Origin: Catajapyx aquilonaris
Taxonomy: Eukaryota
Direction: 5' to 3'
NCBI GenBank assembly: GCA_000934665.2
Contig: JYFJ02001466.1
Coordinates: forward strand, 1-64,000
DNA length: 64,000 bases
This document shows positions 2,578 through 48,907 of the stretch, in pieces. The position numbers were made by a program, and so were the translations under genes. The notes under the pieces are model-generated. The model did no database searches and was not told the origin of the DNA. It saw nothing but the letters and a program-made list of their open reading frames with translations. Every line of letters starts with the position of its first letter. The first letter of the stretch is position 1.

Positions 2578-3970
2578 ATGGCCCGATTTCAAAAGGTTAG
2601 TCGATTAGAATCATGGACCTGGTTTTCATATTGGTAGAATCTTGGGTGTATAAGGCCAATAAGCTGAAAAAGTGTGCACATACACGGTGTTAGTTAAAGA
2701 TATTCAAGAAGGTGGTCAGCCAAACCGGACTGTGCCGCATTCCAAGGAGCAGCTTTGTACCGGGTGGGTCATTACTCATTGGCTGTTTGGAAGGGGCCAT
2801 CCCCACAATTTTTGGGATATAGCTTGGAGAGAAGTTGGCGGAAATTACGGCCAGGTTGCATGCTAGTCATGTGGGAAATTGAGAGTTTTCCCAGGGTTGC
2901 CTGCACGAAGGGTCCCATATGTGACCCCTCCCCTTTTCACTGGATTTGAATAAAAAAATGTACATACGCACTGATTGGTTTATTAGTTTTTGCTACTCAT
3001 TGTAAATATCAGATGTATGTCAATGTTGAAAATATAATTAATTTCAGAATGGTCGCATTATGTTGGAAGAACTATATGACGTATATCACCCTTAATAGGA
3101 ATAGTACGTGAATATATAAATAGTTTTGCCAGGGGGTTCTATTGGTGACGTTTGCAGGAAACGCACATGTCAAACTGACCTTAGTTCACGCTCGGTTGGG
3201 AGATATTCCAATAGCGTTCTGTCATCTGTTGTGTTGCGAATGAATAGATATGTCACTCAAAATGGTAACAGCTACATCCCAGTTTTCACCTCTCTATATA
3301 ATAGAAATAGAGCAGTTTTTCTGCGATAGTCCACCGGATAGGCAATAGTCGCACCCTACTTTCATATCGCTCCAGTTTTGAAATGACATTGTCTTTTCGC
3401 TTCCCTGCCGAACTATTGAGAAATGAAATTTTCTATTACGTACTGTGTTTATAGGCTATAAAACTGTTATCTACTCCATCGATTAGGAAGGAAAATTGGG
3501 TGTCTCACGTGTTCAATGACCGTGGGATGGATGCCTTCTAGGGCAGCAACTACTGTGCTGTCATCATACGCATTCCAGACTAGACCACATTTACACGTGG
3601 GAGTCGATCATTTATGTCATTATCGAAGGAAAACTGGATTACCTCCAGGGTGTGGGTGTGAAAAAAATTGGTAACATTTCAAGTTTTTTTCTTTCTTCTT
3701 CATGCGATATGGTGGCTTGATAACCTGAAAAGCAGTGGTCATTACTACTATAAAGGCCCCCACCATTCTTTTCAAAAGCAAGGTCTCGATAGCGAAAAGC
3801 TCCGTTAGTTGCATTTTACGGCCATTACCAACACATCATATTCTTAAACAGTTAATATATTAATAACAATAGCTCGTCACACAAGAGTTAATCCGTACTT
3901 CCCCTCAATTTAACCTCACTCATGCAAGTCTAGGAGTGGTACAGTGCTGAACATTAATGGTGCCATGTTC

Positions 3971-4037
<67 letters not shown>

Positions 4038-7000
4038 GGGTCCGGTACCACCACCACCACCGACACTAGAGGATCCTCTGGTATGCGATGATGTCCAGTT
4101 TGACTCCCTGCTGTCTCGACTGGACACTCGAGGATTGGTCAGTCTGATTAGGACCATCCAGTCTCGGATGGTATCGGAGCAGACGGCCTTCGAGGCTCTG
4201 GGAGGTCAGCTGCAGGAGGTCACAAACGACCTGCAGCGACAGGAGCTGTCGGTGCAACTTTGCGCCAGACAAGCTCATCTGGCGCAACTTTGCGCCCGCA
4301 ACCTCCGCTGCTTTCTTCAACACCAGGTGGGTCGCAATGGCCATGTACGGCCGAGTTTAAGTTCTTTGGTCCTTTTGGCACCCACTCGTCCACGACACAC
4401 CTATCTGGCCATAACTTCCTCCTACGAATATCTGCAGGTACTCTTCCCTGTTTTAACCCTCCACCGGCCAACCTTGCTGAAGAGGTTGCGCTTCACACTT
4501 CACTGTGTCGTACTGTTGGTTAATGAGGCGGTTTGAAACATTTTGAATACATCTGTCAGCCTCCATCTCTGGTCTGTTGTTACCGCGACACTTTCTATTG
4601 GCCCAGTTCTGCGCGTGCGCAATGGTGCAGAGACAGCGCCTCTGGTGGGTGAGAAGACTTTACTATGGGAGACAACTTTTTTGACATGTATAGTAATCCC
4701 TAAAGTGAAAGTCTTGTCGTAGACAGTCGGTATGCAAATCCTCCTTCAGAGTCACTAGGCGGTTCATTGAGGTAGGTGTACAAAAAACTCCCTGGGGCAG
4801 GACAGGTAGCTCTCTTGGGGACACCCCCAGAATAGCAAGGCCACAACCCCCATCAGCAGGTAGGCGGATTTTCAAAGGGTGCTATGGCCTGGATGGAAAA
4901 ATACACTGACCTTGGTGGGCAGTGGCACGGGGGCGTCGTGCAGCAGTGGAGGCGTCGCGTGGGGGCCTCCTTTGGATTAACCACTGGTGGTACAGGGGGT
5001 GCTCCACCTTACAGACCGTCACCCTCCACCTCCTCCGCATCCATCTTCTCCTAGACCACTCGTCCGTGCAATCTCTCCTCCAGAGCTAGTAGCACAAAAC
5101 TTCCTCTGCCATAGTACACTGGTGCTCTTCGGAAGGTACGCACCATGGCTTCACTCCGATCCGCTTATCTTCTCATGGCGTTAGAGGTGAGCTTTTTTTT
5201 AATTTTCTCATGGAAACATCCGGTTCGTGTAACGCACCGTTATGATCAAAACAGTTCGGGAGTCATTGCGTCCACAGATGGTCGTCGGGTTTGTTATTGG
5301 GCTTGAAAGGTAGTGGTGTGTGAAGTATGTGGCATTCTTCCTTGTGTAGTCAGGCGTCCAAGTCACTCTGCCATTAGTGATGCTGCTAGATGGACAGGAT
5401 GGTATGGCAGAAGGAACGCAAATGTGAGTTTATGGTGTCAAAATTAGTCGCTAATAGCAGAACCGGTTGTAGCAGTGGAAATTAGGGACGATTTTTGATT
5501 ATGTCTAGGTCATATCGTGTAGGCGTGGGTAGGTAACGTAAACTATATACTTTTCCTGATAATTTGGTGCATAATGAAAATAACCGAAACATAAGGAAAT
5601 CCTTATCAAGGTTGGGCGATGAGATAACTGAACAGAAACGAATCTGCTCGTGCATAGCGGCTTGGCACAAAGTGTACGGTATTTCTTTTTTATACCAACC
5701 TATTAGTAAGGTTTACGGGTAGATATTAGTTTATGAACTAAATTGTCCGGCTCCTTCACCTCTTGTCGTATAGCGGTTATTTTTTTTTGATGGATCGACA
5801 TGCTTTGAACACACTGCCGTGAAGTCGCACGATGCATAAAATTAGGTCTTAAATATTCAACACCTCTTATTGTCTCAAAGACATTGTGATGTACAGTCTT
5901 TGCAAAATATTTGGAGCATACATAAGTACGACTAAACAGTCAGGAGGATGTCGCAGAAGATTTTTTTTGTGTGTGGAGTGTTTGATCTCCGAAACATTAG
6001 GCATGTAACTAGGACTTGTTGTTCTTTTTTGGAAAAGCGTGAGTGCCCAAGGACGCATACATGACATGGGATGGACTGGTAAAACTGGAACAGTGGTATA
6101 TGTGAAATCAAAGAAAGCGTGGTACCCTGAACCTGTGGTGCTAGCAGGGGCATCCCGAATAGAAAGGAATACCACAACCGGTACATAAGCGTCCAGTACT
6201 TTCTCAATACATCGACGATAGCCTCCAGGTTTTAACTGCCTCCAATTTTTTGAACTTCACGTGTACGGTCCAATCTGATACGTCGGACTGCTGAGAAATG
6301 GGACACCAAATTACATCCGGAAAAAGGCCGGACCTGCCCAGCACATGACTTTCAAATTCTCGACTGGTGTTGAGCCTCACCCTGTACGTAGCACCTGAGG
6401 AAGACACAGGTTTCCACTCAAGATATACCCATAAAGAAGCCCAAGTTATTACCGTGTTGACGAAGTCGTGACATTTCCACTAGGAAGGTAAATTGCTATT
6501 TATAACCCGTGTAATTATTACTACATAGACGTAACAATTTAGTGTGACGTATAACCGTCCTTAGATAGTGACATCACAAAAGGGCGGAATATAAAGTAGC
6601 CATAAATTGTTCAATAAAGCAAACATCACGCCCACTTTAGGGTTCGAACATTAATTACTTTTGTTCATTGTAAACATCACGAAATGTATTTTGGGTCCCA
6701 CGGACTGTCAGTGACTCTGATGTCCTATTAGTGGAAAATGTACAGGGTGAGTCATAACGCCGTCAGTCGAATCAGGCGACGACGTCCGATTACCAAACAG
6801 GGCGTTGTCGCAAGTATATGCGACCGTCCTTGACGTTTTGCATGGGATCAGCAGGAGACTCGTGTAGAGAAAGGGGGTTGGGTGGGTGTCATGGCGTAAG
6901 GCTTGTGCCGTTAACTGACCCACCACGAGACACATTTCCGCCTTCTAAAAACCGACAGATAACAGCCAGGCAAGCACTTGACACGAAGGTGGCCACCTAC

Positions 7001-10000
7001 TTTGTCGCACACATTCTCCTTCTTCTTCTTGCAATTCGGGGGCATTTGGACCAGAGCTTCGAGGACGTGGGATCCCTGTGGTTCTTTTCCTTCCGCGGAC
7101 GCACTTTGGCGGAACTAACCTGGAAGGGGCCTCGGTGGCCAGAACGGTGTCCATACCGTGACGCAGGGTTTTTCTTATTGCAGAAGCAGCAGCAACAGCA
7201 ACAACACAAGCCTCCTTTAGCACCGACAACAACAGCAGCAGCGGCACCACGCCCACGTCCGGCAGGTCAGGAACCTCATTTGGCCGTCGAATCTGGTGGA
7301 CGAAACAACGTGAGTACATTTTGAGAAAGTTGTGGTGCATCTCTAGAATGAACCGGAAGTGTGGGCGGAACAATCACGAAATGGTAAGTCGCTCTGTAAA
7401 ATGAATATTTGTTATCGCCTACAAGTTGCCATTCTTTTCGTGACTGGTTACGCCCACACTTCCGGTGCAATCTTGCACTAGATGCGGTTTGTAAGGCTAG
7501 TGCCAAAATCACTACAAGTACTGCAGTGGGTTGCATCGCAATCAAGGTAGATAATCAAATCAGGATTTAACGCATTATTATTATTCATTGTTTATAAATA
7601 ATAGCCAGCAATGAATGAAGTCCGTTAAATCTTGGTCAGATCATCTTGATTGTTGTGGCCTAAGTAGGTCTACCACTGAACTACTCTACTGCTATAGGCA
7701 CCTCTGGGGTACAATAGTTGTCACCATTGCTGCTTTTCGTGATGTAAGTTATGTGAAAACTGTTAATAAACTGTACCGTTGCAGGAAGGTTTCTACTCGC
7801 TACCACGTCGACGTCCATTGTTCAGGCCGCCCAGCTGGGACTCGCTGAACAATAGAGACGACAGCGATCTGCCGGTACGATCATCGGTGGACCACGAGGT
7901 GCAGGAACGCTCTAGACGTCTGCTGAGGTCGTGGAGCGCACTGGACGTGCAGGTCGTGCCCGATGACGAGGATGACTGCTGGGGACTCGGAAGAGGACAA
8001 CTGGCACGTGCACCGTCGGTTGAGGAAATCCTAGCGTCGGTCAAGGCTCTACGGCAACGTCGACCCCAACAGGAGATGGGTATCCTGGGCAAGGAGGAAC
8101 CGTGCTACGCCAACGTCGGGATAGTGCGCGGTGCGGCCGACGGTGCTGAAGAGCGACACTATGAGAACGTGATCAGGAAGGACACGGTCGTGCATAAGGA
8201 AACTGTGTACGAGAACGTGCGAGTGCCCGTCACTTATGACGTACCAAAAAGCGCGGTACATGTGTACGACACGCCCAAAAGCAGCAAAACCAGCAGCCTA
8301 ATCCCTACAGCCGCCCGACTTGTGATGCGCAGTGTCATCAAGACCAACAGACACGAAGATGAGGAATGTGAAGCCGATTCCCTTGAAGGTGCGGCCTCGA
8401 TGGTGCCGGACATACCTTCTCCAGGTAAAGCCACAATCTTTCCCCTAATACGCTTGGATGTTTGGCCGACCTAATACTACCGCTATCTATCGCAAGGTGG
8501 CAGGAGTGTACAGAGAGAGTGTGCGCCATCTATGCGTGAAGAATAGTGGTAAATCCGGGCAAATTGATTATCAATCATAATTTTGGCAACATGTTCGCTA
8601 GGAATGCAATAATACCACAGCAAAAATGTATGAATACAGGCGAATATTTTGACCGGAATTAAGCGGGGGTGGTTGGGGCCATAGGGCGTGGGCCTCTGTT
8701 ACCACGACGATGGGGAGGAATTTTTCCCCATTCTACTTCGAGGTAATAAATGCTGCGGCCATGCAGCTAGCTGGGAGCAAGGTCATCCTGTGCTGGCTGG
8801 TGCCCTGCGGCCATTCTTCGGAGGGGGAGGTTGGGTGATTACCTGGGCTGGGCCTACTTTTGTTCCTCTGCTTCTTCCAGACTACGGCAGTGAAGAGGAA
8901 GAGGACCTACTGGAAGAAGAAGAAGAAGAGGCATCAGACGAAGGTCTGGGCGAATCGGACGAACGAAGCTTCTACACTGAGGATCCAGGTTAGTAACACA
9001 CCTAATTGACATTAGTGTGGTTAGCATCATATTGAACAAAAGTGGTAAAAGGCAATGACATTGCCCGGATGGACGTTCAGTGCGGCATGAAGAGGATGAG
9101 TTTGAAAGCGGATATAGTGATGGCGAAATGTATGGACCATTCATGCACGGAGTGTACCTGAGGGACAAGTGCGCAGGTGATGTGAAATGATTGCCAGCTT
9201 ATGACGAGGTGCTTGAGACACCTGACAAAAAACAAAAGGTGACAGGAATTGCAATGTCACTGTCCTCGTTTCCTGGCCTACATGACGTAAATGTTGAAAA
9301 CGTTAAGACCGAAAAATGGACGGAATTCAGAAATGTGACGTCATTTAGGTCCATTCATACTGATACTTTTTTGCAAGAAAGCTGCTTGCCAATAAAATTA
9401 TGAATCATAAAATAATTAATACCGTAACAAGGTTGCGTGATCGTTGGTCAATCCAGAACAAGTAATTAATCCATAATTAGGGTTGTGGATAATATTACCG
9501 ATCAATTTACCAGCAAATAGTATACCATATTACGCAACGATGTTGATGCCTCACTTAGTGCCAATTCAAGCCTCACGTCATACCAGGAAACGCACACAAA
9601 AAACGGAAATGGCAACAAGTGTCATACCCCGCGAGATAAACTCATCAACGCACTTCAGTGGATCTTATCTGACTTTTTAGAAACCTCCTCACCGACACTA
9701 CAACCACACCCTAAATCCCTCCATATGTGGCATCATGTCTTTATTTGCACTTGAAAGCCTAATCGAAATATTATATTTTGAAAATATGATTATGTCTACG
9801 CTTTTATAGGATCTCGCTAATTTATAACTCCAACTTTTTCACTATAAATTGTTAGGGTATGTTTTTACGGAAGGACTTTTATGTGGGGAGACCGAATGTG
9901 GCAGCGGTAGGGGCACGCTGCCAAGGCTGTACTTTCCTTCCCGGCAGATACATGCATATTTTTCAGCGGATACATGCCTACGAAAGTGAATACGTAAACT

Positions 10001-13000
10001 AATATCGTAGCAGTTTTTCCTGTAGCCTATACATTTCATAGTACAGAGTTGATTTTGGTGACGTTTTCATGGCACCCATAAGCGGTCACTTTTATAGCAA
10101 TTACAATATTGTACTTTTATAGCTTGTTTTGCGTTAATGCGCCTTTTGGACTTGTAGAGAGTCTGCGATGTTTACACTCATAGCACGTGACCATTTCCGT
10201 CATGCTTTCCCTCTCCCAACACAATATTGAGAAAATTGCCTCCAAATTGCATAACCGTTAGCCTACACAACCCCCTCAATATCCGTCGTATCTGCATTAA
10301 ATCGCGACGTTTAACCCTTTCATCTGGTCTGGACCCAGTGACCTCCCATCCAAATGACTTTCCACGGCCACAATTACACCCAAAGCGGAAGAGTCATATC
10401 CACCCTTGGCAAGACATCGATAAACCGAAGCCAGTACCGCACACTGTACGCGACCGTATCCTAGAAACGTAATCGGCTGAGATGTTGATCTATGTTGATT
10501 GCTTGCTGGAGTCGAGCCCAAATTGGGGCAGTGCAGCGAAAGGGAAAGAGGTTTACGTCCAGCGACCAGCAGCCACCACGGAAGACCGGTTTGGATGTGG
10601 TGAGAGGCACCCGCATGTGTGTTGCCTTCTCTCACGTAGTGTACATCAGACACGAAGAATGGCTGGAGGTGTGCATCAAGGCAGGAAGTGACGCCCAGTA
10701 GAGCGAGGCACTCGTTCGCTGCCCTCAGTCGTCGTGTCTTCAGCCTCGGGCCAAGATGCTGGGATTCCTGGACTGGATACTGCTGGTCCTGGTGCTGTCT
10801 GTGGTCTTCTTGGGAGTGTCCAGGATATGGCAGGGTAACGTCTGTAGGGTGACGAGAGGAGGCGGTCAGGTCCTAATATGTGTGCGAGGAGCGTTCCCGG
10901 AATGTGAGATCATCGGGTGTATATAGGTGGCCCTGAGGTCATCGACGGGTAGTCGACAGCTGGATTGTGTCGGAGCAAGTAACATATCGGTGGGTAATGT
11001 CCCCAGGTCTGGAGGTCATACTGGAGGAACCGGAAGAGGAGGAGGGAGGAAGCACCACCAAGGACTCATTGGCTGTTGCGACGACTCCGATCATCGCCGT
11101 CAATGGAGCATCCACCTCGACGTCCCCTACTGCATCGGAAGGCGTCTGGTCCGCCGACGGCGCCGACGTCGATGACGTTTCCGGCAGACGAGCTTCCGGT
11201 AAGGATGAATTCACACTGGGGTCGTTGGGCCGATGTTGGGAACACGCTGAAAATTCGTGCATAAAAATATTCACTAGGTGCATGAAATTATTCACTAGGT
11301 GCATAAAATATTTCAAGGTGCATAACATTAGGATGGCAAATAATAAATTATTCACTTTCCTACATTGTTATAACACATACGAATTGATTGCAAAATAATT
11401 TTCTCACTATTTTTATTTGTTTTTCCGACAATTTATGCAGCTATAGTTTTTATGCCCTTTTCCCGGTATGAACGAACTTTAAGGTGACACTTAAAACCCA
11501 TAGGCAATATTCACCGCCCTGTTAACACCTCGGGTGCAGTACGTGTTGTTGCAAATGCATGAAGCAACCCTGCTGGCTTCCCCCTAGCCAATAGTTGCCT
11601 CCGGCCTACAGTTATCGCGTATCGCCGATATACCCAACAGGTGTTAGGTATTGTTTGACTTGATAAAAAGGCACGCAGTGGCAGTTATAATCCGACCAGA
11701 GATGTTGCATGCTACTCTGGCAGTTGGAAACACATTTCTGGCGCTGACCAAGCCAACAGGTTAGTCTCTTCTTATCTCTATAGGTATACTCTGGTAGACA
11801 CTTGGGAAGTAGGTCGTGATTTCGACAGGTTGCACAGGCCGTTTCGTAACCGGGCTGTACTTGATATACGGTATGACCAAGCCTGTACGGAGTCACCGTA
11901 TGCAAATTATTGCGTGTCTGCCCATATCTGATCAGCAGGTCGTGATATGCTGCCAGTTTATAGCAAGCCAAGTGCTATGAAATATTTTTACAGGATGATG
12001 ATCTCAAGGAATTCTTGCTCGAAAAGGTCCTTCAGGTTCATCCGTATCGGAAACCCGTTAAAAAGAAGGGGGGCACAAAAAACCACCGTTTTATAGGGTC
12101 GTATATGATGATACGCTGCTTTTCACCTGGCGCGACTATTACCCTGAAAAGTTCGCTCATTAAGGATCAGAGAGCCTTCTCTTAACTTCCGCCTTGGTAT
12201 GACTTTCACTTGCGGAAAAAGACAAGGACCGGAAATGCAAGGAGACTTGCACACCGGATACGTGACCGCTCTCGAAGTATCAGTACAAAGGGTAGTTACA
12301 GCCATTAAAAATTCTCATTAAGCTGTTTGTAATTAAGCAGCTACTTGTATCACCTGCTAGACTTATGTAGTGCAGAGCGATTAGCAGAGCACGTTGGCGA
12401 TGAGTCATTGAAGTGGGTCGGGACAAACTTGTGGACAGACAGAATTAGGGGTTTAGCCGGTATATATAGATAGCCATGGAAGTGACGAATTGCCTGTTTA
12501 TTTCATGTAGACTAAACCATGGTATAGATTTGGGTAACCTGTAAAAAGACGTGCTTTATTTTTAAGCACTTAATTAACTGCTTTAAAATAAGCAGCTTAC
12601 AATTATTTTTAATTGGAGCACGTTTCTGGCCTGGAAAGTACCACCCACATATCCACATAATTGGCTTGTGTCAGCTGGGGACAATGATGACCTAAAAATA
12701 TACGTATTGGGTTCAATTGACGGGACTTCCTCCGCATGCAGATGCAGGGCAGCAGACGGACCGATGCGTCGAAGTGTACCAGGAGACGCTCAGACAACGA
12801 GGGATGAAGAACAGCAGCAGCAGCAGCAGCAACAACAGCGACGTCAAGGCAAGTAGTTGGCGCAAATCAAGGTCGAATCGATGAGTCATGTCGTGTGTTT
12901 GTCGTTAGGCGGTGCGGGCGTCGTCGACGTCGGAGCAGCTGCCGTCGGTCAGGGCACTTCGCTCCAGATTCGAGCATCGTCACGACGGCACCGACGCCGC

Positions 13001-16000
13001 CCCCAGGATGGCCGTGCGACCGTCGCAGCCACCGCCGCCTCCTCCGACGGCGACGGCGACGGACGTCGTCAACCACTTGTCATCAGACGGGCTCAACCAC
13101 AAGGTCACAAACGGTGACCACCACCACGCCCACGGTGACCTACTGGACGGTGCACCGACGCCGAGGATCTGCACACGACGATGGGATCCGGTAAGGATTG
13201 TTCACCCTAGCAAAACCCATGCTCCAGCAACTGGGTCAAGGTCGTTTTTGCACGTGCTTGAAAATGTGTAATTGCGCGCAGAAATGTTGCGCAAAGTACT
13301 GTCGTGATTCACCTTCGACATACAGTTGCGGAAAAAAGTATGGTCGAATGAATTCAGCCGTTTTTGAAGTTTTTTTTCTAATGGCTCAGGTGGTGTTTAC
13401 TATTTTTTTATTTTATTTTATCAGGTGTGTAAATACGCGTGAAGGTTGCGCCTGCTTCGTATTTCTTCCGGGTTTTGTACCACTGTTAAACGCGGCGTTG
13501 ATGATGATGGCACCGCATACCGCAGGTTGTTTACTCCAGCAACCGTATTGTAATGCACATTGCTAATTAGAACGTGAATTGCTGATTGTCATGCACAATA
13601 AATAGGACACAGCTGCGTGGTATGTCATCGCCCAGAATCTCACCCATTGTGCATTAAGTGAAAATTGTTGACTCGAGCAACCCGTTGCCAACAGTGCAAC
13701 GGCCTTTGCAATATGCTTGTTATAAATATTAGATGATTTCACTGCAAAATGTGTATATCAACAGGTGAATCAGGAGCATGTTGGGTTGCATATGGGGTCA
13801 GGATAATGTCCGTTTTTATCCAGGAAGTTTTAACCTATTTTGCATAATTGGAGGAAGTATGGAGGGCACATGCAAGGAGGGCGGGGGAGGAAGTTGCTTC
13901 ATCTAATTGTTACAGGGAAGTATGGGAAGAGACGCCTACACATGGAAAATTCAGTTGGGTCAACAGTTGCATGGATGTGACATGATGATAGTGTAATACA
14001 GCACTCTTTGTCATTTCCAGACCAAGCTTCTGTCAATGTTGTATCACGTCCCGGAGGTGAAGGTGGGGAGCAACCCAGATGTGTCCAGCACCTATGTTAA
14101 CATGGAGGGTTACTTAGATGTGCTGCCGGCTGGACGCAAGAAAGCCACCTACTGGAATGCCTGGAAGAGGCGGTATGTACGTGCCAGGGATGGTGTCCTG
14201 CGTGCGTATGACTCTGCGGCTGATGCAATGGCTGCGGATGAGTCAGAAGATGCTGAAGAGCCGCCGGTGTCCATGTGGTTGTCTGGAGGGAACGTGGATG
14301 TGAGTGAGGCCACCACGCTGACCAACGGTGATGGAGGAATGGTGGGAAGGGACAGGCAGCCACTAATGAGTTGCATCCTCGGGGTGGATGATGGCCGAGG
14401 AAGATATCTGACTCTGAGGACACCTAGCAGACAGGAGTGCGAGAGGTGGCGAAGAGCACTGTTGACTCACACGGTGGAGAAGTGTGATGCACATCTGGTG
14501 CGGCCATGGCCACTGCCAAGGGAGCCGGAGCTGTTCAGGCCTGCAGTCATAATTGAGCTCGGGAGCTCCTCCATACGAGCAGGGAGGCTCTGCACACAAC
14601 GTAAGTGCAGGATGGTTTTGCAGATGGCTAGAAATTCCTTACAATATAGAGAGCAATGCATTAGGCAAACTCTTCTACAAGTATAACAACTTGTCAGTGT
14701 TATCGATGACATTAATCTACATCTATAGACAGTACAATTCTACAGTATGAAGTTGTCAACATTTTCACAACCATTTAATTTATTTTTCCAGCGGTCCTCC
14801 CACAGCTGTTCTTCCCATCAGTTGTAGCTGTGGAACGTGAGACATCCAAAATCCACTATGGGGCCTCTGCCCTCCTCCCGCACATTCGATCCTCCTCCAC
14901 CTTACACTATCCCCTCCGCCCATCGGAAAAGATCTCAAAGTTTGCCCTTGAAACCTCCCATCTGCATGGACTCTTCACCCACATTATCCAGTCACTCAAT
15001 GTCCACCAACCATCTGAGATGGGAGTCCTCTTAGTACTGCCACGTCGCTTCCCCAATGCCACGCTGTCCCTCCTGGCTGCCATCCTTCTGGAGGAGCTTG
15101 GTTGCAGGTGGCTGGCAGTCTGCAGGCAAAGTGTGCTGGTGCTGTATGCCTATGGAGCCACTACTGGAGTTGTGGTCGACATAGGGGAGCGCACTGATGT
15201 AATCTCAGTGTCCGAGGGATACCAGACGTATGGCAGTGACACCCGGATGCCATGTGGTGGGAGGGTCTTGCAAGAACAACTGCGTCCAGCATTGGCACAA
15301 AGGCAACGAGTCGGGATCACTGGTGAGATGGAGGCGCTGCTGCTGAGGTTAGCTGCGGAGAGCCTGTGCTATGTGGCCAGGGATTACAAGGATGAGCTGA
15401 GGACAGCTGCTGAGGAGCCAGGCTTCTGCGAGGGCAGCGTGCAGCTCAGGGAGTTCTTTTCTGAAGAGGAATGTCCTTGGGAGTAAGTACCTCCCTTTTC
15501 ATGACACCTTTTGCACTTTTAAGGCCTCATGAAAGACATAAAATACTAATGTTATGACCGTGCATTTTGGTGTCATCTTCCCACTGCTGTACTTCACAAC
15601 AGACATGAGATACTCTGTAAAAGTCAGGGCAACAGCTATAAGTGATGTGTTTTATCATTTTGCATTGCTTAGCAGTAGAAATATAACCACACGTATGAGA
15701 GGTATAAAATATTTTGTAGAAACATAATATATCATCCTCGTTGTAAATGTTACGTATGTTACACATCAAGCATATTTTGATGCATCAGAGCCTAGATCTA
15801 AACTACACCTTGCTCTCTTCCTCTCCCTTATGCAGTTTGGAAGAAATCCCAGAGTAAGTACTGATTTTCATAAGTGTTTGTCCAAACATATATTCGTTCC
15901 GGCTGTCCTCCAAGCAGACTGCAATCAGAATACATTATTTATATGCTACACGTGGCCATTCTTGCTTACCCCATGATTTCCAAAAATATTGCTGCATTTA

Positions 16001-16468
16001 CACCAGCTAAAAAGCTGCAATCAAAAATGTCGTATGGTTACACTGAAGTAAAAACTAAATAATGTGTTTCTTTGCAGTGAATTAACGTTGGACACTGGCA
16101 GATTCCAAGCTCCGGAGGGTCTGTTCCAGCCAAGTTTATGGGGCTTGGACCAACCAGGACTCCACCGTTTGGTCCACTCGGCCATCCAAGAATCGGGACT
16201 GGACCTCCGCCGTGAAATGGCCCGAAGCGTGTTCCTGTCTGGTGGTCTCTCCCTCATCCCCGGATTGGCTGAGAGGCTGCAAGACGAGCTCACCCTCCTG
16301 CTACCCCCTGCCGTTTCCCCAAGGGTTCATGCCTCTCCATTCAGATACCATGCAGCCTTCCTTGGGGCTACACAACTCGCCAACCAGACCCAATTCAGGC
16401 AAATTCAGGTCTCCAGGAATGAATGGAAATCAAACAGTAACAATGCAATTGCTCGCTGGAATCTGTAA
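2578..16468 (+). CDS. Long-isoform model of a PH-domain plus C-terminal actin-like-domain protein (~1170 aa) with a helical N-terminus and a long disordered region
   Basis: Phase-consistent exon chain 2578-2595, 4039-4326, 7184-7309, 7785-8424, 8881-8988, 9081-9176 (weak acceptor), 11007-11198, 12742-12848 (GC donor), 12909-13190, 14021-14600, 14792-15482, 16078-16468, totalling 3519 nt in one open frame. Linkage of the exons upstream of 7184 is inferred from phase and the FLQHQ|KQQQQQQH junction only. Confidence 0.6.
3971..4037 (+). repeat. (TTA)n microsatellite, ~22 units
   Basis: Directly visible; runs into the AG acceptor at 4037-4038. Confidence 0.97.
10684..10730 (+). promoter_or_regulatory. 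Candidate internal promoter of the PH-actin gene (GGAAGTGACG motif plus TCAGTC initiator)
   Basis: TCAGTC matches the arthropod Inr consensus TCAKTY and lies about 30 nt upstream of the ATG at 10756. These are short motifs and could occur by chance. Confidence 0.4.
10756..10834 (+). CDS. Putative alternative first exon of the PH-actin gene encoding a hydrophobic signal/membrane anchor (MLGFLDWILLVLVLSVVFLGVSRIWQ)
   Basis: ATG in ccaagATG context, 26 codons plus 1 nt, CAGG|gtaacg donor. Phase 1 matches exon 11007. TCAGTC Inr-like motif at 10725-10730. Confidence 0.65.
11258..11325 (+). repeat. Short tandem repeat, ~21-bp unit (gtgcataaaaatattcactag), ~3.3 copies, intronic
   Basis: gtgcataaaaatattcactag / gtgcatgaaattattcactag / gtgcataaaatatttcaag / gtgcataa. 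Confidence 0.8.
14021..16468 (+). CDS. Core PH domain plus actin-related (Arp-like) domain exons of the same gene
   Basis: PH: MEGYLDVL...WKRRYVRARDGVLRAY...YLTLRTPSRQECERWRRAL. Actin fold: AVIIELGSSSIRAG...PQLFFPSVVA; RQSVLVLYAYGATTGVVVDIGE; ESLCYVA; GRFQAPEGLFQPSLWGLDQPGLHRLV; VFLSGGLSLIPGLAERLQDEL; RYHAAFLGATQLA. PH and actin start lie in the same exon (14021-14600). AATAAA overlaps the stop codon (16467-16472). Confidence 0.92.
15836..15853 (+). CDS. Putative 18-nt frame-preserving microexon (adds six residues, LEEIPD) within the actin domain
   Basis: Long pyrimidine tract with TGC motifs (ccttgctctcttcctctcccttatgcag), perfect gtaagt donor, phase 2-2 matching the flanking exons, no stop. 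Confidence 0.65.
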
Positions 16469-17394
16469 TAAAAAGGGTAAAAAAATGACTTAAACTTCTT
16501 AGGGTTGCTCAAAATGTAGGACGAATCAAAGAATTGAAATTCAGATTGTAGTTTACAGAGCAGCGCTATTCTGCATGTTAATGTAGCATGTGTGTGCAGA
16601 GAGTTTTAACTTAATAACCCACAGCATTGTTGTATATACTGATTCTCTGACTACAATGTTGCAAGCTAAGATTTTAAAACTCTATTTAGTGGTCTGTAAG
16701 CTGCAAAAAAATATTTTCTGCATGAATAATGAAGCACAATTTTACCTTGTCTCAATCCCAACAAATGTCAAATCTTGACTGATCCCCTGCAATAACAATG
16801 ATTCTGGAGGACTGTGATAGTGTGTAAGCTGGAGAGAAAATTTACTTTGCCACCATAGTTTCCTGAAAAATAAAAAAGAGTGTGTTATGTAACAACGAAT
16901 TAATTATTTGACTGCATTTCAGGTTGTGTTTACATGTGAGCAGTTGATCAGCAATGAGCATCGTTGAGCGATGGAACCAATTGTTTGGGGCGAAAGTGAC
17001 AATAATTGTGGTAACTATTCCGGTCCGTTCCAAACAATTGGTTTCATTGCTGGGCGAATCTCTCACATGTAAACGCAGCCAACGGGTCTACCTCTATGTA
17101 GCATTCCTATCCTCCAAATCTGGTTCTGGAAGAGAGGTCAAAGTTCAACTGGGCTGCACTTAGGATCCACCGCAGGTAAAGAAAGTCAATAGACCGGCGT
17201 AAATAATTTATGCAACACCTACCCCTGAATCAAAGGGGCAAACAAAAATATATGTCAACAATGCAATTCCCTTCCCAGGGAATTGGACTGCAACAATTGA
17301 TCTGAGCACTAGCACTATACAACAGAATTATCAGAGTCGTTACAATTTTGCGTGTCCGTTAATCGAGTTGTCGGGATCTACATTTTCGGTTCAT

Positions 17395-17922
17395 CTACTG
17401 TCTCTGCGATTCTCTTCTTCCTTCCTCCTTGCCCTTATTTTCAGGCCCTTGCACATTATCTTTGAGCTGAATTTCTTGATCAAGTCTCTCCTTTGCACGT
17501 ACCACCTTCGACTGCAGGTAAAACGACCCTCCCTTCGCCTTGTCATTGACACCGAACAGGTGGTCAAAGCTCTTCTGAACCGTTTCTTTCTCAAGGCCAT
17601 CCACATTCAGAATCTTCTGCGCCTCCTCCACTGATATGCCTGTCCGCGCATTGGCAGCGGCACGTTGGGCTCCAGCTTGCCCACCGCCACCTCTTCTGGC
17701 AGCTTCCTGACCAGCAGCAAACTCCTGGTGGGTGACACATCATTAGAACTCGTCACATTAATTAGGTGACTTAATTAGCCTGACAAAATAGCCAGATTGA
17801 TGATCATTATGATGATGAAATTTAGGCCATGCGGCCAGCAATACCTGCTTAAGTGCTCTGGCGAAGGCTCTTCCTAGGACCTGGGTCCCGGTGATGATGA
17901 TCTGGACCAGGTAGCGGGCCAT
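17395..17922 (-). CDS. PAM16: Mitochondrial import motor subunit PAM16/Tim16 (Magmas), 135 aa, two exons
   Basis: Exons 17922-17845 and 17724-17395 encode MARYLVQIIITGTQVLGRAFARALKQ|EFAA...GISVEEAQKILNV...FDHLFGVNDKAKGGSFYLQSKVVRAKERLDQE, the hallmark J-like domain of PAM16. Confidence 0.97.
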
Positions 17923-25646: not shown

Positions 25647-28600
25647 CTACCTTGACCGGTACTTGTCCTGATTTCCATAGTACTCGTTGTAAATGAGTTT
25701 GAAGAGAAATAGGTGAAAAACAATGATGAGAAATGAGATGGACACCCAAAACAGGGCTGGAAGTCCTCCCAAACTGTGTCCATGCTTGTGCAGAGCAATC
25801 ACATGGTGCTCATGGGCAGGGGCTGAAAAGATAAGCAGGTCATTACGATGTGATAAATTCCTCACCAAATCGCCCTAGGTGCTCAGAAGTGACCAAAAAT
25901 CAGTGGGAGCCACTTTCAGCTAGTGTTTTTAATTTTTTACTTTAAAACTTACTGCTTTGTCCCTTAACTAAATAACTATCACAGTAGTCATTCAACCCCA
26001 CAGATAAAAATATTCATAGGTCATATATGTGACTGGTTTAGAGCCAGTTGTACCAGGTCAGATTCTTATACTTAAGTTTGCTGCAATGCTTCTTTCTATC
26101 AAGCAATATTTCGGCAGACAAGATTCTGAGCAGTGTTGATTTATCCGACCCGGTGCCGCCACCCATTAAAAATTAAAAATTGATCTAGTGGATATACCTT
26201 CTCCAATCTCCTTCACATGAATAGTGTGCCTGAGCAATTCAATGTGCTGGCGATCACGGGTAATGTACAAAATGGACGTCACTGGACTGGTCAACTTCAC
26301 TGGAAATTGAATATACTCATTCCTGAGCAGGACTGGTGCATCCAGGCAACCAGCATCACATGCGTAGAAGCTGCGATCTGCACGGTCCAAGGCAACATAC
26401 AATGCTGCCCGGTTGTCCTCCTGCACAGTAACAGATATGTTCACATATGTAGCGTTGCCGCACAACACTCTCCTAAATAAGTAGTCACGATGCAGGTCCC
26501 TTGGGTGGGTATTGAACTCTAGGTGCTGATCCATAAACTTAAGTGCACCAAAACTCAACACCATCCCTTGCATAACTCCACTAGCTCCAGCTCTCAGCAA
26601 TTTGTAGCACCCTTGCTTCTCCAGAGTCAACAACCAGTAGTTAGCTGCCGTTAACACCCTCTCCAGCGTGTTTGAATCGGGCCACAGGTTGTCAGCCTGA
26701 AGTGTGTGATGCCCTGAGTAACAACCTTCCAGGAAGTTCACAAGTGAGCTGGGATCAGGCTTTTTGATGTCCGGATCACTCTCTAGTAATGGGGCACGTA
26801 CTTGTGACAACACATAGTACATTGTGGAGTTGATTCGGTCGCCATTCAAGGCTCCCTGAGCTTTTGATTGGCTTATGCTGAAACCAGTGCTCCACAGCTG
26901 GGTCCATGCACGAACGTGATCTTCTCGTAGGCGCCGATAGCTGACCCCTAGGGAACGCTGAAGGTGCTTCAGGGCAGTGTTGGACACAGTCTCGCGCCAG
27001 TTGGCAAGGTCATCTGCTGCGATGGGATCTGTGTAATTGACAGATGTTAATATCCTCAAAGTGGTAGATGACTTGGCCTTCACTTCGAGTGAGGACGGAA
27101 GCTTCTTGGTGACTATTGCCACAGGAATCAACTGGCCTGATTCCAGACCATCTGATGACAGCCCACCAGTGACCACAAGATACTCACTGGTACCTTCACC
27201 ATGTGTTATTCTGAAAATGATAAAAGAAGAGTTAGCAGTTTACTCCATAATCCGTTGAATAATTTTTTATTCTTTTCGAAAGAATAAAAAATTATTCAAC
27301 TGAGGGGTCTGAGATAAAAAATGGCCAAGTCCACTTTTGGGGGCTGTAGGACAAATACGTGCAACAATTATGTATTTTTATGTCATTGGGTATTAATTGC
27401 ACATTTCTGTATGTAGCTGAACTGCGGCAACATATGGACGTAAAAAGTTCCACGGTTGTACCAGTGAAAGTTCAGCAATAATAAATTTTTTCTCATTTTA
27501 CAACCAGTTTTTGCAAGTAGACTTGGTCATTTTAAATCCAAGACCCCTCAGATATCATTCTTTAGTGATGTGGCCTTTACCACTACAACAAATGAACTTA
27601 CTTGGTGACCTTGACCTGTGCCTCAGGCCAGGAGACGACACCAACCCTCTCCAAACTGACAGTGACGTCTACTGAAGATGGATTGGATACTTTCACCTCC
27701 TGCACCAAGATAGCTGGCTGGGCCCTGTGCGCGTAGACCTGATGGTGCACCCTGACTTGCGACCTGCCTCCGCCGCATTGAATAAGGTGGACTGTGCCAC
27801 TCTGCATCTGCAACACTGCTGCTTCTTTCATCTCCACCAGTTCATCTGTGTCAATGGAGACAGCAACGACAGGGTGAAACTGGAGGGGCAGGGAGAGTGT
27901 CCGACCATGGTGTATGTGCAGAGCAGAGTCGGAGGGGCGAAGAGAGACTCCCAGCAGGCCATTCCCAACGTAAGGAAGAAAGGGTGCTGTGGAAGGAGGG
28001 GTGGGGGGCAGAGGGGACAGCGGGGAGGACAGGTCCACCCCATCTCGCTGAATTAAAGTATCATATGAGGCAACCTCATGTCGGAAAGCATCCAGCTGCT
28101 CATTCAGGCATCGCTGAAGAAAATCTGGAAAAAAGAAAACCCACCATTATGCCTGGTGATATTTCATTAATAAATGCATCAAGTATTCCCTATACGAAGC
28201 TACTGTTACTCAGAAGTGTAAAAATTTCCACCTACAATATATGAACTGCCTTCACTTCCATCTGGTGTAACTGCATGCTGATTATCTCAAATGATATTCC
28301 AGCATACTGATTAACCTTGTTGAATATGAGCCTGCCAATCACTCTTTTACACCAGAAGTTTGCATATGGAGAAATGCTATCCACCGGGTATCAGAAAACC
28401 ACACACTCTCAATTGTCAACAGTTTACTTTTGTGGGCGGTGCAGCTTTGCAGGTGTCTACAGAGGGCAGTAACTGAGCCTCATTTTCACAAGAGCATTTT
28501 CTTGCCCTTTTCTCAGAAATGGATATTTTCTCTTCCCTGGAAATGATATCTAACTCATTCCCCCCAAAGGTGTCCCTGGTCTGAGAACATGATACAAAAT

Positions 28601-36700: not shown

Positions 36701-39700
36701 CAATAAATCACAATATCAGTAAATTATACTCATTTATGCCATGCCTTCTGCCTGTATGTAATCTGCTACCGGCTGCCTTCTATGCAAAAGCATATAAGGC
36801 AAATTCCAATATTATTAAAGCACACCCACGAGCCACGACAGACGTCTTGGGAGAAATTTGCCAATGCTGAGAGTCAATAACTTACGTAACATCATGTACG
36901 CATGCCAGTCATTTGTTACGGCGCAATGTTTCAGCATGCGAAAAATACTTTATTTAATATCCGTAATTATTATTATTTAAATCCCACACGAATTCCACAT
37001 ACTTAGTGTGCTAAAAATAAAGCATATTATTCGAGCTAAACACTTCTCACATTCTCAACAAAAGGAGAAGCCACAAATTATGGGGGAAAAATTGCAGATT
37101 TAAAAAAAATTGAATGTGCAAATCCTCCAGGAGAGGTCATCCTCCCTGGTTGGTGTCAGTGGCTTCGGGAAGGTGTTCGAGATCTTCAAGGGCGAAACAA
37201 GCAATGCCAAGTAACCTTGACCCGCAATCAACCTTGATGTAGTCAAGTCACCTTTGCCACCATCAACGGAAACGCTATTGACCGGTTTCACGTGTCCTTT
37301 GTATAGGTTATGCCGTCCATTCCCTTACAAGTTTTTTCATGGTCTCTTATATGCCAAGAAGCTATAAGCCAAGCTGGTTTAAGGTCACGTGAACATATTA
37401 GATAGGATAGTAGTTATCCAGTCTGTGCTTCACATTTGAAAGGTTAACTGGCGACATGTATACCACCCATTGACGTACAGTACATTACACCGGAAAAAAC
37501 GTATGAAGCAATAGGGTAATGCAATCTATGAACTATTCTGAGAAAGGGGGTGTGAAGTGGAGTAATAATCCATTGGTTGTAATCCTGTGACCCATGCAGA
37601 GCTGTTCTTAAAGAGCAAACAGCAGCTGACCAATTTTAAGTTGTGCAACTATTAGGTGAAAGTGGTGGACCAGAATTGATCGAGACTTTTCAGGCGTAGA
37701 ACAAAAGCAACGGATGAGTGATTGGGGAGAATAGTTTCCTCGTATGGGGTGGGTGCTAAAATAACAAAGTGTCATGTAATAATGTAATCTTCAAGGGGCT
37801 ATAGTAAATTCGTGTTTTGCATGCGATATTAACGTCACTGAGGTATCTGCTGCGATTTTGTATGTGTGAAATTGAAAGAAAAAAAAACAATTTCGCTTAT
37901 CAGTTTTATATCTTGGATTACACCTTACATAGGGTGACCTTCATCTAAATGGCCATGATACAAGTTACAGAGGGATAATCCAAAAACTTGGATAAAAACA
38001 AGACGTACAGGTTCAAGGGTAAAGTTGCACAATCAAATGATGCTTAGCTGAAATCGGTCTGAATCAACCAAGACTGAATGCAGTGAACTTGAATTCTAAT
38101 TGGCCGTCACTCCAAAATGAATTACACCATGTCGTTGCACCCTACTCGTGACTGTTCAAGCACTTGCACTGTACATATACGGCCGTGACATCTGCAACGT
38201 GCGCACGTGATGATACTTGATGTCTCATAATGAATATACCTGTATGTGAAGGCAATATAATTTTTTTAAAGGCATCCTGAAGCTGAAGGTCGATGTTTGC
38301 ATAAGAGGTGTGATATATAAACTTGAATATTGTTCTGGTTACTGATGTATTATTAATTTAATCATCACATTATTCATAAACTCGAATGATTTCTTGTTGA
38401 CAGTTGGGGTCTGGCAGTTGGAAGGAAGCCTTGGACAGTCATCATTAGCACGTTGGTCATATCAGCAGCTTGCTGCATAGGAATACTCGGATTTTACAGA
38501 GAGACACGTCTGGACCAGTTATGGCTGCCAAGCAATTCCAAATTTATGCGAAACACAGAGTGGTTAAGGGAGAATTTCCCAATTCCAGTTCGCATGCAAT
38601 TTGTAATGCTGGAGGCCGATGACGTGTTGCAACCGAAGGTCATGCAAGAGGTGTGAGCTTTAAAAAAAAATACTCTTCTTCCTCTTAATATTCAACAAAA
38701 AATGAGAAAATAACATGAGAAATATCTTCCAGCTCTTAAGGCTTCACCAAGTGGCAGAAAATGCTTCTGTAGATGGCAAGACTTGGCAAGATGTTTGCTT
38801 CAAGTAAGTAAAACCACGAGGAAGTGCAAGTCCTGCAAGCTGTCCATCATCAGTAAGTGAATGTGCAATTTTAGGATACCAAGAATGCCAACAGCCAAAA
38901 CGCGTCGAAAGCGCTACGTTGAAAACACAACTGATGACTTCTTCGACGGAGCGTTCGACGACTTCGACACCGAAATACGTACCCTTGAGATCAGCAAAAC
39001 CACAACCACCACTACCTCCAAACCAGCTGTCACAGTCTTCTCCAAGGACGACTTTAAAGATTTCGGCGAAGCCTTCGTGGATGACGGCAAGTCGGAGTTT
39101 GACCCGAGCATTGACGTCCCTCAGACTTTGTACTGTTCATTTTTTAACTCGCTTGACAAGATGTGTTTCGAGATGAACGTACTCGAGTTGTGGAACTACG
39201 ATCCGGATGTGGTGGCCCGTCTAACCAAAGAAGACATCGTTGAGGCTGTTAATACCGTCAAGGAAAGGTGGGTTTGAACTCTGGCCAAATCAACTCGGTC
39301 AGGTTTGTTTACAAGAGCGATGCACTGTGCCTTTGGAGTGTGTCGTAACTTCTTTTTTCTTCCTCATCGTCTAGTCCTGTGAGTGGTATGCCTTCGGATT
39401 ATCCGGCGTTGCTTGGGGGCGTGTCACGTAACAGTACTGGTCATATTGTGAAGGCAACGGCTGTGATGACCAGATATTTCAACCAAATCAACTTCACAGC
39501 TATTGACACTAGTGGTGATGCAATGGATTTAGGATTGGCCGAAGAGGTAAGATTATTCCCACGATGTCCAGAGTTCGTGTGGGTTTTCACACTTTTCCTC
39601 CTACGATATTTCAGTCACTCTCACTTAGAACCTTTATGAATATCTCTGAAGGCCGAGAGAGGAAGGTGAACTGTGGTTTAAGTAGTTCCACATTTTTTTC

Positions 39701-40856
39701 TCATTAGAACAGCACTGTCAGGACATGTCAGGAGATGGCCACATGGCAGTAAAAATTGTTGTACACTAAACATTAGAGGTTAGAATGATCGTATAATATT
39801 TGAATCCATTGATTCATTTGAAAATACCCAGTAAAAGCCACGGAACGTGCCATTATTAGCCTATATAGAATAAATTAGCCTACTGAGCTGGTTTACTACC
39901 ATATTTTGAGAGCTTCCTTATTCACGTCATTGTAGGCGTTGACACCGCATGATTTTCGTGCTTTGCAAGTAGAAGGATTGGAGTGCAGTTCCTGGTTAAT
40001 ATTTCACTTACTATACTAATTTGAAGTAAATGAGTAAGATAATTCATTTGAGCTTTGAAGGATGGATGAGGTTTTACTGCCAATATTTACCACAATTTAT
40101 GTCCTGGCAGCTTGCGCACTGATGTCAGTTTCCCTCTAAAAATATATAAATGACGTGCCATATTTCCTAGTTCCGGGTAATTGCATATTTAAGTTATAGA
40201 CCTAATTCTGTTTGCTTTCTAGATTCAAGGTCTCCTAAAAGGTAAAATATGAGCTTTCAGTTCAGACATATATCCACGTGACTTGTATTGATGCATGCGA
40301 AGGTTTCAGTGCAATAAATAATACTGCAATACCACGTAATATTAGCATCATTCGTGTTATGTGTATAGAGATTGAAAATAAGTTTCTCTTATACGGAAAA
40401 CATTGTCAAATTATGTTAAGCTACTAAGAAATGTATACATAAATAATAATTAAAGCAGTGACATGTCATTTCATAAGCAACTCGTGAACTCAAACGGGAG
40501 CTGAAGTAATGTGATGTGTCCATGACCATTAGTCTACTAGCAAAATAAAATGAAAATAATTGCCAAAATATGACAGTTGACGCCCCCCCCCCTTCTCTAT
40601 ATTGAAACGACGCAATGTGCAGTATGGCTGTAAGTTGAGGGACTTTTTAAAATATGAGTGATGAATAATTTATTCAAGTGTGCCATTTCATGACCTTTTT
40701 AAGTTCGGTGATCTACCGGTGCTATTTGTTACGTAAGCATAGTCAACCTAGCCAGTTAATACAACTTAATTCTCATTATTAATGGCTTCAGTAATTTTAC
40801 GTAACAGTGAAATAAGCACAATTTATGCAACTAGGTACTAGGGGAAGGTAAGTTGC

Positions 40857-40908
<52 letters not shown>

Positions 40909-46102: not shown

Positions 46103-46146
<44 letters not shown>

Positions 46147-48840: not shown

Positions 48841-48907
<67 letters not shown>

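Follow-up and report, generated by a model that had tools for sequence, protein, structure and literature searches.

A conserved cluster of SH2-type tyrosine motifs in the long isoform of a PH-actin protein of Catajapyx aquilonaris, a candidate phosphotyrosine docking region

A stretch of 64,000 nucleotides from Catajapyx aquilonaris (contig JYFJ02001466.1, positions 1 to 64,000 of the forward strand; called the window below) carries a gene for a protein that ends in a PH domain and an actin fold, and one exon of this gene, 7785-8424 on the plus strand, encodes five tyrosine motifs of the types that are bound by SH2 domains. This exon is genuinely coding and belongs to the long isoform of an uncharacterised arthropod protein, in which an N-terminal helical domain, a long disordered linker, an acidic stretch, the PH domain and a divergent actin fold follow one another. 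Residues 108-164 of the exon translation are read here as a multi-site tyrosine-phosphorylation docking region, with a probability of roughly 0.6, because the conserved selectivity positions of the motifs (Asn at +2; Asp at +1 with Pro at +3) are those of two SH2 ligand classes. The preliminary description of this DNA had proposed a tyrosine-kinase substrate scaffold joined to an actin fold; of this proposal it stands that the motifs are conserved and lie in the same protein as the PH-actin part, while the phosphorylation of the tyrosines, the binding and identity of SH2 partners and the role of the actin fold are what we infer from the sequence.

The tyrosine cluster and its conservation

An AG (7783-7784) and a GT (8425-8426) flank the exon, and bases 7785-8423 of the plus strand translate as one open frame of 213 amino acids. 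The exon and its motifs are listed here.

7785..8424, plus strand: exon with disordered linker and tyrosine cluster; 213 codons plus 1 base, ending in phase 1
8007..8069, plus strand: conserved helix motif RAPSVEEILASVKALRQRR, the sole predicted secondary structure in the exon
8106-8117, plus strand: YANV (Tyr108), YxN-type motif
8160-8171, plus strand: YENV (Tyr126), YxN-type motif
8208-8219, plus strand: YENV (Tyr142), YxN-type motif
8235-8246, plus strand: YDVP (Tyr151), YxxP-type motif
8265-8276, plus strand: YDTP (Tyr161), YxxP-type motif
8235..8276, plus strand: tandem YDVP-x6-YDTP, with a fixed 10-residue spacing from Tyr151 to Tyr161

Translation confirmed the earlier claim that YANV, YENV, YENV, YDVP and YDTP lie within 57 residues of the exon (8106-8276, Tyr108 to Pro164). 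Five of the six tyrosines of the exon fall within these motifs, and the remaining one belongs to YSLP at 7794. When the residues of the exon were shuffled 100,000 times, at least three YxN appeared at a frequency of 2.6e-4, at least two YDxP at 4.5e-4, and at least three YxN jointly with at least two YxxP at 1e-5, while three Y-x-N-[VILM] appeared in none of the shuffles. Since the shuffles almost never match the observed counts, the cluster is not a composition effect.

A phmmer search with the exon against 1.84 billion cluster representatives gave ten matches with E<=1e-3, none of them below 1e-10. Nine are family members; the tenth, P0020, is a repeat protein without the motifs and was dropped as spurious. 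No close relative is among these matches, so the test of conservation rests on distant relatives. In an alignment of 17 relatives, whose sequences are not independent (four barnacle-like, eight named or apparent decapods), Tyr151 is kept in 17/17 and so is YD[VI]P, and the same holds for Tyr161 (17/17) and its YDxP (17/17). Tyr126 is kept in 16/17, with YEN[VFLI] in 15/17, and is invariant in alignment A1; Tyr142 and its YxN are each kept in 15/17. Conservation of the tyrosines, on which the preliminary description had made its scaffold depend, was thus found for four of the five motifs (15-17 of the 17 relatives) but not for YANV, whose Tyr108 is kept in 13/17 and which is a YxN in only 4/17, all barnacle-like. 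Y151, D152, P154, A157, H159, Y161, D162 and P164 are invariant in A1, as are the helix columns R75, P77, S78, E81, I82, L83, S85, V86, K87 and L89, and YD[VI]P-x6-YDxP with the same spacing was found in all 28 of the 28 family sequences that have YD[VI]P, plus the window.

The abundance of the motifs was compared with chance in 18 regions, those of the 17 relatives and the window. The observed count of YDxP was reached in 0/20,000 shuffles in 17 of the 18 and at 2e-4 in the window, and YxN was enriched at <=0.0013 in 16, the exceptions being P0014 (0.045) and P0019 (0.19). In decapod, krill and amphipod relatives there are mostly 5-7 YxN and 4-6 YxxP per ~260-320 residues, and in barnacle-like relatives 6-8 YxN and 4 YxxP; the shorter regions of P0014 and P0019 have 3 and 1 YxN and 4 and 5 YxxP, respectively, and the means expected from shuffling are ~0.2-1.4. 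Across 12 representative sequences the +1 residue of YxN is Glu in 38/64 motifs and the +3 residue Val, Leu or Ile in 55/64, and YxxP has Asp at +1 in 51/54 and Ile at -1 in 20/54. The aromatic residues of the cluster region are almost all tyrosine (Y 6-18, F 0-3, W 0-1 per region). The PH-actin part of the window protein lies on a long branch, with 1.23 changes per site, which makes the retention of the motifs more telling.

The cluster might be regarded as a compositional by-product, with no specific function, of a low-complexity linker containing Tyr, Asn and Pro, and the linker is indeed disordered and, in decapods, compositionally biased. We hold this to be extremely improbable, because shuffles that keep the composition rarely reach the observed counts and because, in 13 lineage-spread relatives, identity to the window is 65% at the 20 motif positions as compared to 18% at the other 78 linker positions (one-sided Mann-Whitney p=2e-7).

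Two side observations concern this exon and its relatives. Met98 of the tyrosine exon (8076-8078) is invariant in A1, and P0008 (Homarus) and P0014 start exactly there; translation may alternatively begin at this Met, which would produce an isoform that has the cluster and PH-actin and is devoid of the N-terminal domain. P0018 (Macrobrachium, isoform X13) has an upstream extension with further Y-A-A-P and IYDVP motifs, which is either more sites of the Abl/Crk type or a fused neighbouring gene model.

Exon structure and the link between the cluster and PH-actin

Contigs of one public sequencing run of unknown kind, X1, which contains 0.20 of the words, were compared with the window over 3600-17600. 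These contigs skip introns at GT..AG sites and therefore derive from transcripts. Together with tblastn, Pfam and the splice signals, they give the following elements around the tyrosine exon.

4039..4326, plus strand: N-terminal helical domain exon of the long isoform (tblastn of orthologues)
8881..8988, plus strand: acidic exon DYGSEEEE...DEGLGESDERSFYTEDPG (splice signals; X1 joint to 11007; collinear with orthologues)
11007..11198, plus strand: disordered, acidic exon starting LEVILEEPEEEE (X1 joints on both sides)
12742..12848, plus strand: exon DRCVEVYQETLRQR... (X1 joint 11197|12741)
12849-12908, plus strand: inferred 60-nucleotide GC-AG intron, AAG|gcaagt...ttag|G
12909..13190, plus strand: exon with the LPSVRALRSRFE motif and disordered linker (X1 contig 12907-13189, joined to 14020)
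14021..14600, plus strand: PH-domain exon (Pfam PH; X1 joints 13189|14020 and 14600|14792)
14093-14104, plus strand: YVNM, overlapping the first residues of the Pfam PH match, which begins at its Asn
14792..15482, plus strand: actin-fold exon, subdomains 1-2 and part of 3 (Pfam Actin)
16078..16468, plus strand: last coding exon, C-terminal part of the actin fold (Pfam Actin), with the stop at 16466-16468

From 8881 on, X1 chains all exons up to the stop at 16468, bar the inferred 60-nucleotide intron. Its joints are 8984|11003 (cut +4) and 11197|12741 (cut +1), both GT..AG, 13189|14020, 14600|14792 and 15482|16078, with canonical signals after the cut shifts; the last two are both within one contig of 1486 nucleotides, and an X1 contig extends beyond the stop to 16711. 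The acceptor of exon 8881-8988 is preceded by a pyrimidine tract, and its donor was read in the sequence. Junction 12848|12909 was not seen in the X1 contigs; taking out the intron 12849-12908 removes in-frame stops at 12882 and 12906 and leaves a model with an open frame of 996 codons that runs from 7785 to the stop at 16466-16468. The Pfam PH match in 13997-14683 has E=3.3e-6 and 28 bits, against a cut-off of 25.1, and the Actin matches have E=3e-15 in 14779-15483 and E=9.9e-27 in 16052-16465; the other Pfam matches in the window exons were weak, sub-threshold ones to TEX13 and Salactin.

Relatives support the same order. Long relatives aligned collinearly to the window by tblastn at 4078-4323, 7944-8423, 8943-8990, 12753-12974, 14000-14599, 14794-15465 and 16031-16465, with 7-8 collinear matches per orthologue and 43-45% identity over the PH exon, and blastp of the spliced model against the relative P0004 gave a match over residues 47-1016. 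The homology blocks run in the order of N-terminal helical domain, PSVEEIL helix, tyrosine cluster, DIPSP-DYGSEEE/LEVILEEPE, LPSVKALR, PH and actin fold. At the 5' end, 4078-4323 was matched by 8 orthologues with 35-51% identity and E down to 1e-19, within an exon that has an acceptor tag|G at 4038/4039 and a donor CAG|gtgggt at 4326/4327. A splice 4326|7785 is compatible in phase (0/0) and may be the link to the tyrosine exon, a candidate that comes from reading the sequence. The first coding exon was not found, since exon 4039-4326 has no ATG, and the Ser-rich stretch of ~350 amino acids in the orthologues had no credible match in 4327-7784 of the window. An (ATT)n microsatellite at 3963-4037 abuts the acceptor of exon 4039-4326.

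Whether the cluster and PH-actin share one mRNA was a question raised by the preliminary description, for which an exon on a separate transcript would have spoken against the scaffold. The idea that exon 7785-8424 lies on such a transcript, or in an isoform never joined to the PH-actin exons in this species, finds some footing in X1, which has no contig over the tyrosine exon (7803-8269) or across 8424|8881 and is uninformative either way. In relatives, short forms with PH-actin only occur (P0011, 687 amino acids, named 'actin-like isoform X2', and P0007, 737 amino acids), and P0001-3, P0016 and P0017 stop just after DIPSPG. The residues after DIPSPG are unrelated, however, as expected if the caller of open reading frames ran into a genomic intron, and the short forms make the cluster a feature of a long isoform. 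A splice at 8424|8881 would be in phase, with canonical signals and a strong acceptor (pyrimidine tract and CAG), and would yield DIPSP-D-YGSEEEE, a peptide that Amphibalanus, Eriocheir, Scylla and Meganyctiphanes also have. Thirteen long relatives were retrieved with a profile built from the linker alignment, and 12 of them have the cluster, PH and Actin in one protein; the exception is a Trinorchestia model that ends at the same exon boundary. The cluster and PH-actin stand in one predicted protein, mostly from automatic gene models, in Amphibalanus amphitrite, Panulirus ornatus, Eriocheir sinensis, Homarus americanus and Scylla paramamosain, and likewise in Meganyctiphanes norvegica, Macrobrachium rosenbergii, Procambarus clarkii, Cherax quadricarinatus and Hyalella azteca. 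Uninterrupted open reading frames hold both parts in P0028 (1649 amino acids on a contig of 6133 nucleotides), P0014 (1000 amino acids on 4972 nucleotides) and P0024 (1007 amino acids on 3883 nucleotides), and these contigs are too short for introns and so appear to be assembled transcripts. With the X1 chain from 8881, the 996-codon open model, the in-phase junction and the 12/13 relatives against it, a separate transcript is very unlikely.

In P0005, P0008 and P0018, 8-22 extra residues lie between DIPSP and DYGSEEE in some decapod isoforms, which points to a micro-exon or to alternative splicing at the DIPSP|DYGSE junction in those decapods.

The docking reading and its alternatives

The motifs fall into two ligand classes. 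The pYxN class, that of Grb2/Drk, is represented in the window by three copies with Tyr, Asn at +2 and predicted disorder around them, and the pYxxP class, that of Crk, Nck, Abl and RasGAP, by YDVP and YDTP with Pro at +3. The consensus sequences given in an excerpt of PMC10279719 are pYxNx for the Grb2 SH2 domain and pYxx(P/L) for that of CrkII, and the doubly phosphorylated partners of RasGAP have proline at +3 according to a part of PMC10470053. In the AlphaFold2 (AF2) model of the tyrosine exon, built on 10 aligned sequences with a mean predicted local distance difference test (pLDDT) score of 53.2, the sole helix covers residues 79-95, with the conserved RAPSVEEILASVKALR motif (block pLDDT 78-86), and residues 101-170 have no secondary structure (block pLDDT 40-58). 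The model is consistent with a tyrosine segment that is disordered and accessible. For the tyrosine region of P0004 the best ESM Atlas score was 0.80, which is below a usable level.

As a docking region, the cluster would work as follows. Its tyrosines would be phosphorylated by a kinase of the Src, Abl or receptor type; the aliphatic residue before Y-x-x-P resembles the substrate preference of Abl. The pYxN sites would then recruit an SH2 domain of the Grb2/Drk class, and the pYDxP sites SH2 domains that prefer proline at +3, such as those of Crk, Nck/Dock, Abl or RasGAP. Tyrosine-kinase signalling would thereby be coupled to a module that could bind membrane through its PH domain and that carries an actin fold.

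A more specific form of this mechanism takes YD[VI]P-x6-YDxP as a bidentate ligand of tandem SH2 domains with the spacing of an immunoreceptor tyrosine-based activation motif (ITAM), the flanking YxN motifs recruiting Drk, in a receptor-proximal actin-fold device confined to the crustacean type. The Y-x9-Y spacing is found in 28/28 sequences and the window, and the +3 residue is Pro; the ITAM consensus has Leu/Ile at +3. The most attractive candidate partner is of the RasGAP/Vap class, a class that binds doubly phosphorylated partners and has SH2 domains favouring proline at +3; Shark/Syk- or Csw/SHP2-type proteins are alternative candidates. The actin fold would then be brought to phosphoinositide-rich membrane under tyrosine-kinase control, where it might seed or cap filaments. 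We regard this specific form as quite unlikely.

Several points weigh against a docking region. A search of the literature for the family or its locus names turned up no paper on the family and no phosphoproteomic or binding record, the supplementary tables of crustacean proteomic papers, which might contain phosphosites of these proteins, lying outside that search. The YxN/YDxP cluster is absent from the millipede-type relatives P0013 (Chamberlinius) and P0012, in which the N-terminal domain, the PSV[ED]DIL helix and PH-actin are all kept, so the PH-actin module does not need the cluster. The set of the window is reduced, with 5 motifs as compared to mostly 10-13 in decapods, krill and amphipods and 10-12 in barnacle-like relatives; EVIYDxP (aligned to TVVHK) and a third EYDTP are lost, and the YANV position is not a YxN in decapods. 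The relatives are not independent samples, and many of them are decapods. The silence of X1 over the tyrosine exon, described above, may be added, and the invariance of A157 and H159 hints at a recognition unit that is larger than two independent SH2 sites.

This last point leads to the alternative that the conserved motifs work in the unphosphorylated state, as an intramolecular regulator of PH-actin or as ligand of another partner, the 14 residues YDVP[RK]xAxH[IV]YDxP being read as one piece. The invariant A157 and H159 and the fixed spacing in 28/28 sequences are more constraint than two SH2 sites need, and the searched literature holds no phosphorylation record for these sites. However, the conserved selectivity positions (Asn at +2; Asp at +1 with Pro at +3) are those of SH2 ligand classes, the YxN copies differ in number and place across lineages, as is typical of redundant docking and not of one folded interface, and the region is predicted to be disordered. 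We therefore consider this alternative unlikely and prefer a phosphotyrosine docking region.

Two other classes of tyrosine signal were rejected. For a YxxPhi endocytic sorting signal, no membrane-spanning segment was noticed in the model or in the relatives, which were inspected without a dedicated transmembrane prediction. The consensus of the immunoreceptor tyrosine-based inhibitory motif (ITIM) has I/V/L/S at -2, where the residues here are P, R and T.

The preliminary description had also counted YVNM, just before the PH domain, among the docking motifs. YVNM is present at the edge of the PH domain but overlaps the PH match, and a role in the PH fold is more likely for it than one in docking. 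Its tyrosine is at the first PH strand and is kept in relatives without the cluster, and is thus likely structural; the position has Tyr in 18/21 family sequences, including both millipede-type relatives, and Cys in the P0014 group. The AF2 model of the PH-actin module (P0011, 15 rows; mean pLDDT 48.7) is too poor to judge packing or the burial of YVNM.

Relation to known proteins, distribution and significance

Among 2802 candidates from a word-indexed search for longer proteins, with the exon as query, 6 matched with E<=0.01. Three of these six are full-length proteins of 1541-1649 amino acids; they come from a barnacle, a crab and a spiny lobster, and all three have PH and Actin. The window gene belongs to a crustacean PH-actin family, e.g. 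LOC122383995 (Amphibalanus amphitrite) and LOC126981511 (Eriocheir sinensis), with members in decapods, krill, amphipods and barnacles, and database names are generic only ('uncharacterized protein', 'hypothetical protein', 'PH domain-containing protein', 'actin-like'). No insect, chelicerate or non-arthropod match was found in searches of limited reach, which is weak evidence of absence.

The C-terminal part belongs to the Actin/Arp superfamily. The window exons match PF00022, the C-terminal ~370 residues of the relatives match positions 5-406 of its 410 with E 1e-46 to 1e-53, and the closest PDB entries by phmmer are conventional actins (E ~3e-45). The near-full-length Actin match resembles those of conventional actin and orphan actin-related proteins; unlike in these, a PH domain and a disordered N-terminal part of ~600-1200 residues precede the fold, and no named Arp class was identified. 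The phosphate-loop sequence VIIELGSSSIRAG is retained in the actin fold of the window, and relatives have Asp at the position of its Glu. This Glu replaces the first phosphate-loop Asp (VIIELGSSS; 14600-14640), and the PH domain (14021-14600) has an acidic insertion.

The cluster itself can be compared with several docking scaffolds. Like the substrate domain of p130Cas/BCAR1, it has YDxP/YxxP motifs arrayed within a disordered region. Cas carries ~15 YxxP. Unlike in Cas, there are 2 YDxP in the window and 4-6 in relatives, and the array is mixed with YxN and followed by PH and the actin fold. Multiple adjacent pYxxP sites cluster Crk on p130Cas/NEDD9 and paxillin, as stated in the excerpt of PMC10279719. 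In six relatives, full-length or nearly so, that were searched against Pfam at E<=0.05, PH (with one weak PH_8) and Actin were the only domains found, and neither these relatives nor the window exons showed the SH3 or Cas C-terminal domains of the Cas family or a PTB/IRS match as in Dok and IRS. The combination of a PH domain with disordered SH2-binding tyrosine motifs (YxN, YxxP) in one polypeptide is shared with Gab/DOS, Dok and IRS. In those proteins the PH domain is N-terminal, and in Dok and IRS it is followed by a PTB domain; here, in contrast, it comes after the motifs, and an actin fold forms the end of the protein. Dok1 is named in PMC10470053 as one of the RasGAP partners that are doubly phosphorylated and have proline at +3. 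According to the same excerpt of PMC10279719, Grb2 and CrkII are brought to the cytoskeleton by the scaffolds PEAK1 and PEAK3, which use conserved tyrosine/SH2 motifs of a disordered region for this purpose. Unlike PEAK1/PEAK3, the present protein has no pseudokinase domain in Pfam searches, and its cytoskeletal link would be the intrinsic actin fold; no sequence relationship to PEAK1/PEAK3 was found. By analogy, the segment would work like the Cas substrate domain and the Gab, Dok and PEAK scaffolds while standing outside those families.

The neighbouring genes of the window are listed below. The Pam16 exon lies tail to tail with the PH-actin gene, and minus-strand X1 contigs cover 17334-17600.

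17398-17739, minus strand: Pam16 exon, mitochondrial import motor subunit (Pfam E=7.8e-31)
26169-28146, minus strand: DUF2152 gene (Pfam E=3.7e-88)
about 38390-51539, plus strand: Patched/sterol-sensing-domain gene (Pfam E=8.4e-24)

SH2-docking arrays such as those of Cas, Gab, Dok, LAT and PEAK act by recruiting other proteins that remodel actin, and here such an array, a PH domain and an actin fold are combined in a single polypeptide. We found no description of a direct fusion of a phosphotyrosine docking scaffold to an actin-like effector. The millipede-type relatives, with a PH-actin module and no docking array, offer a natural comparison. If the tyrosines are phosphorylated, the protein would provide a short and testable link from tyrosine kinases to an actin-like effector in animals that are important in ecology and aquaculture.

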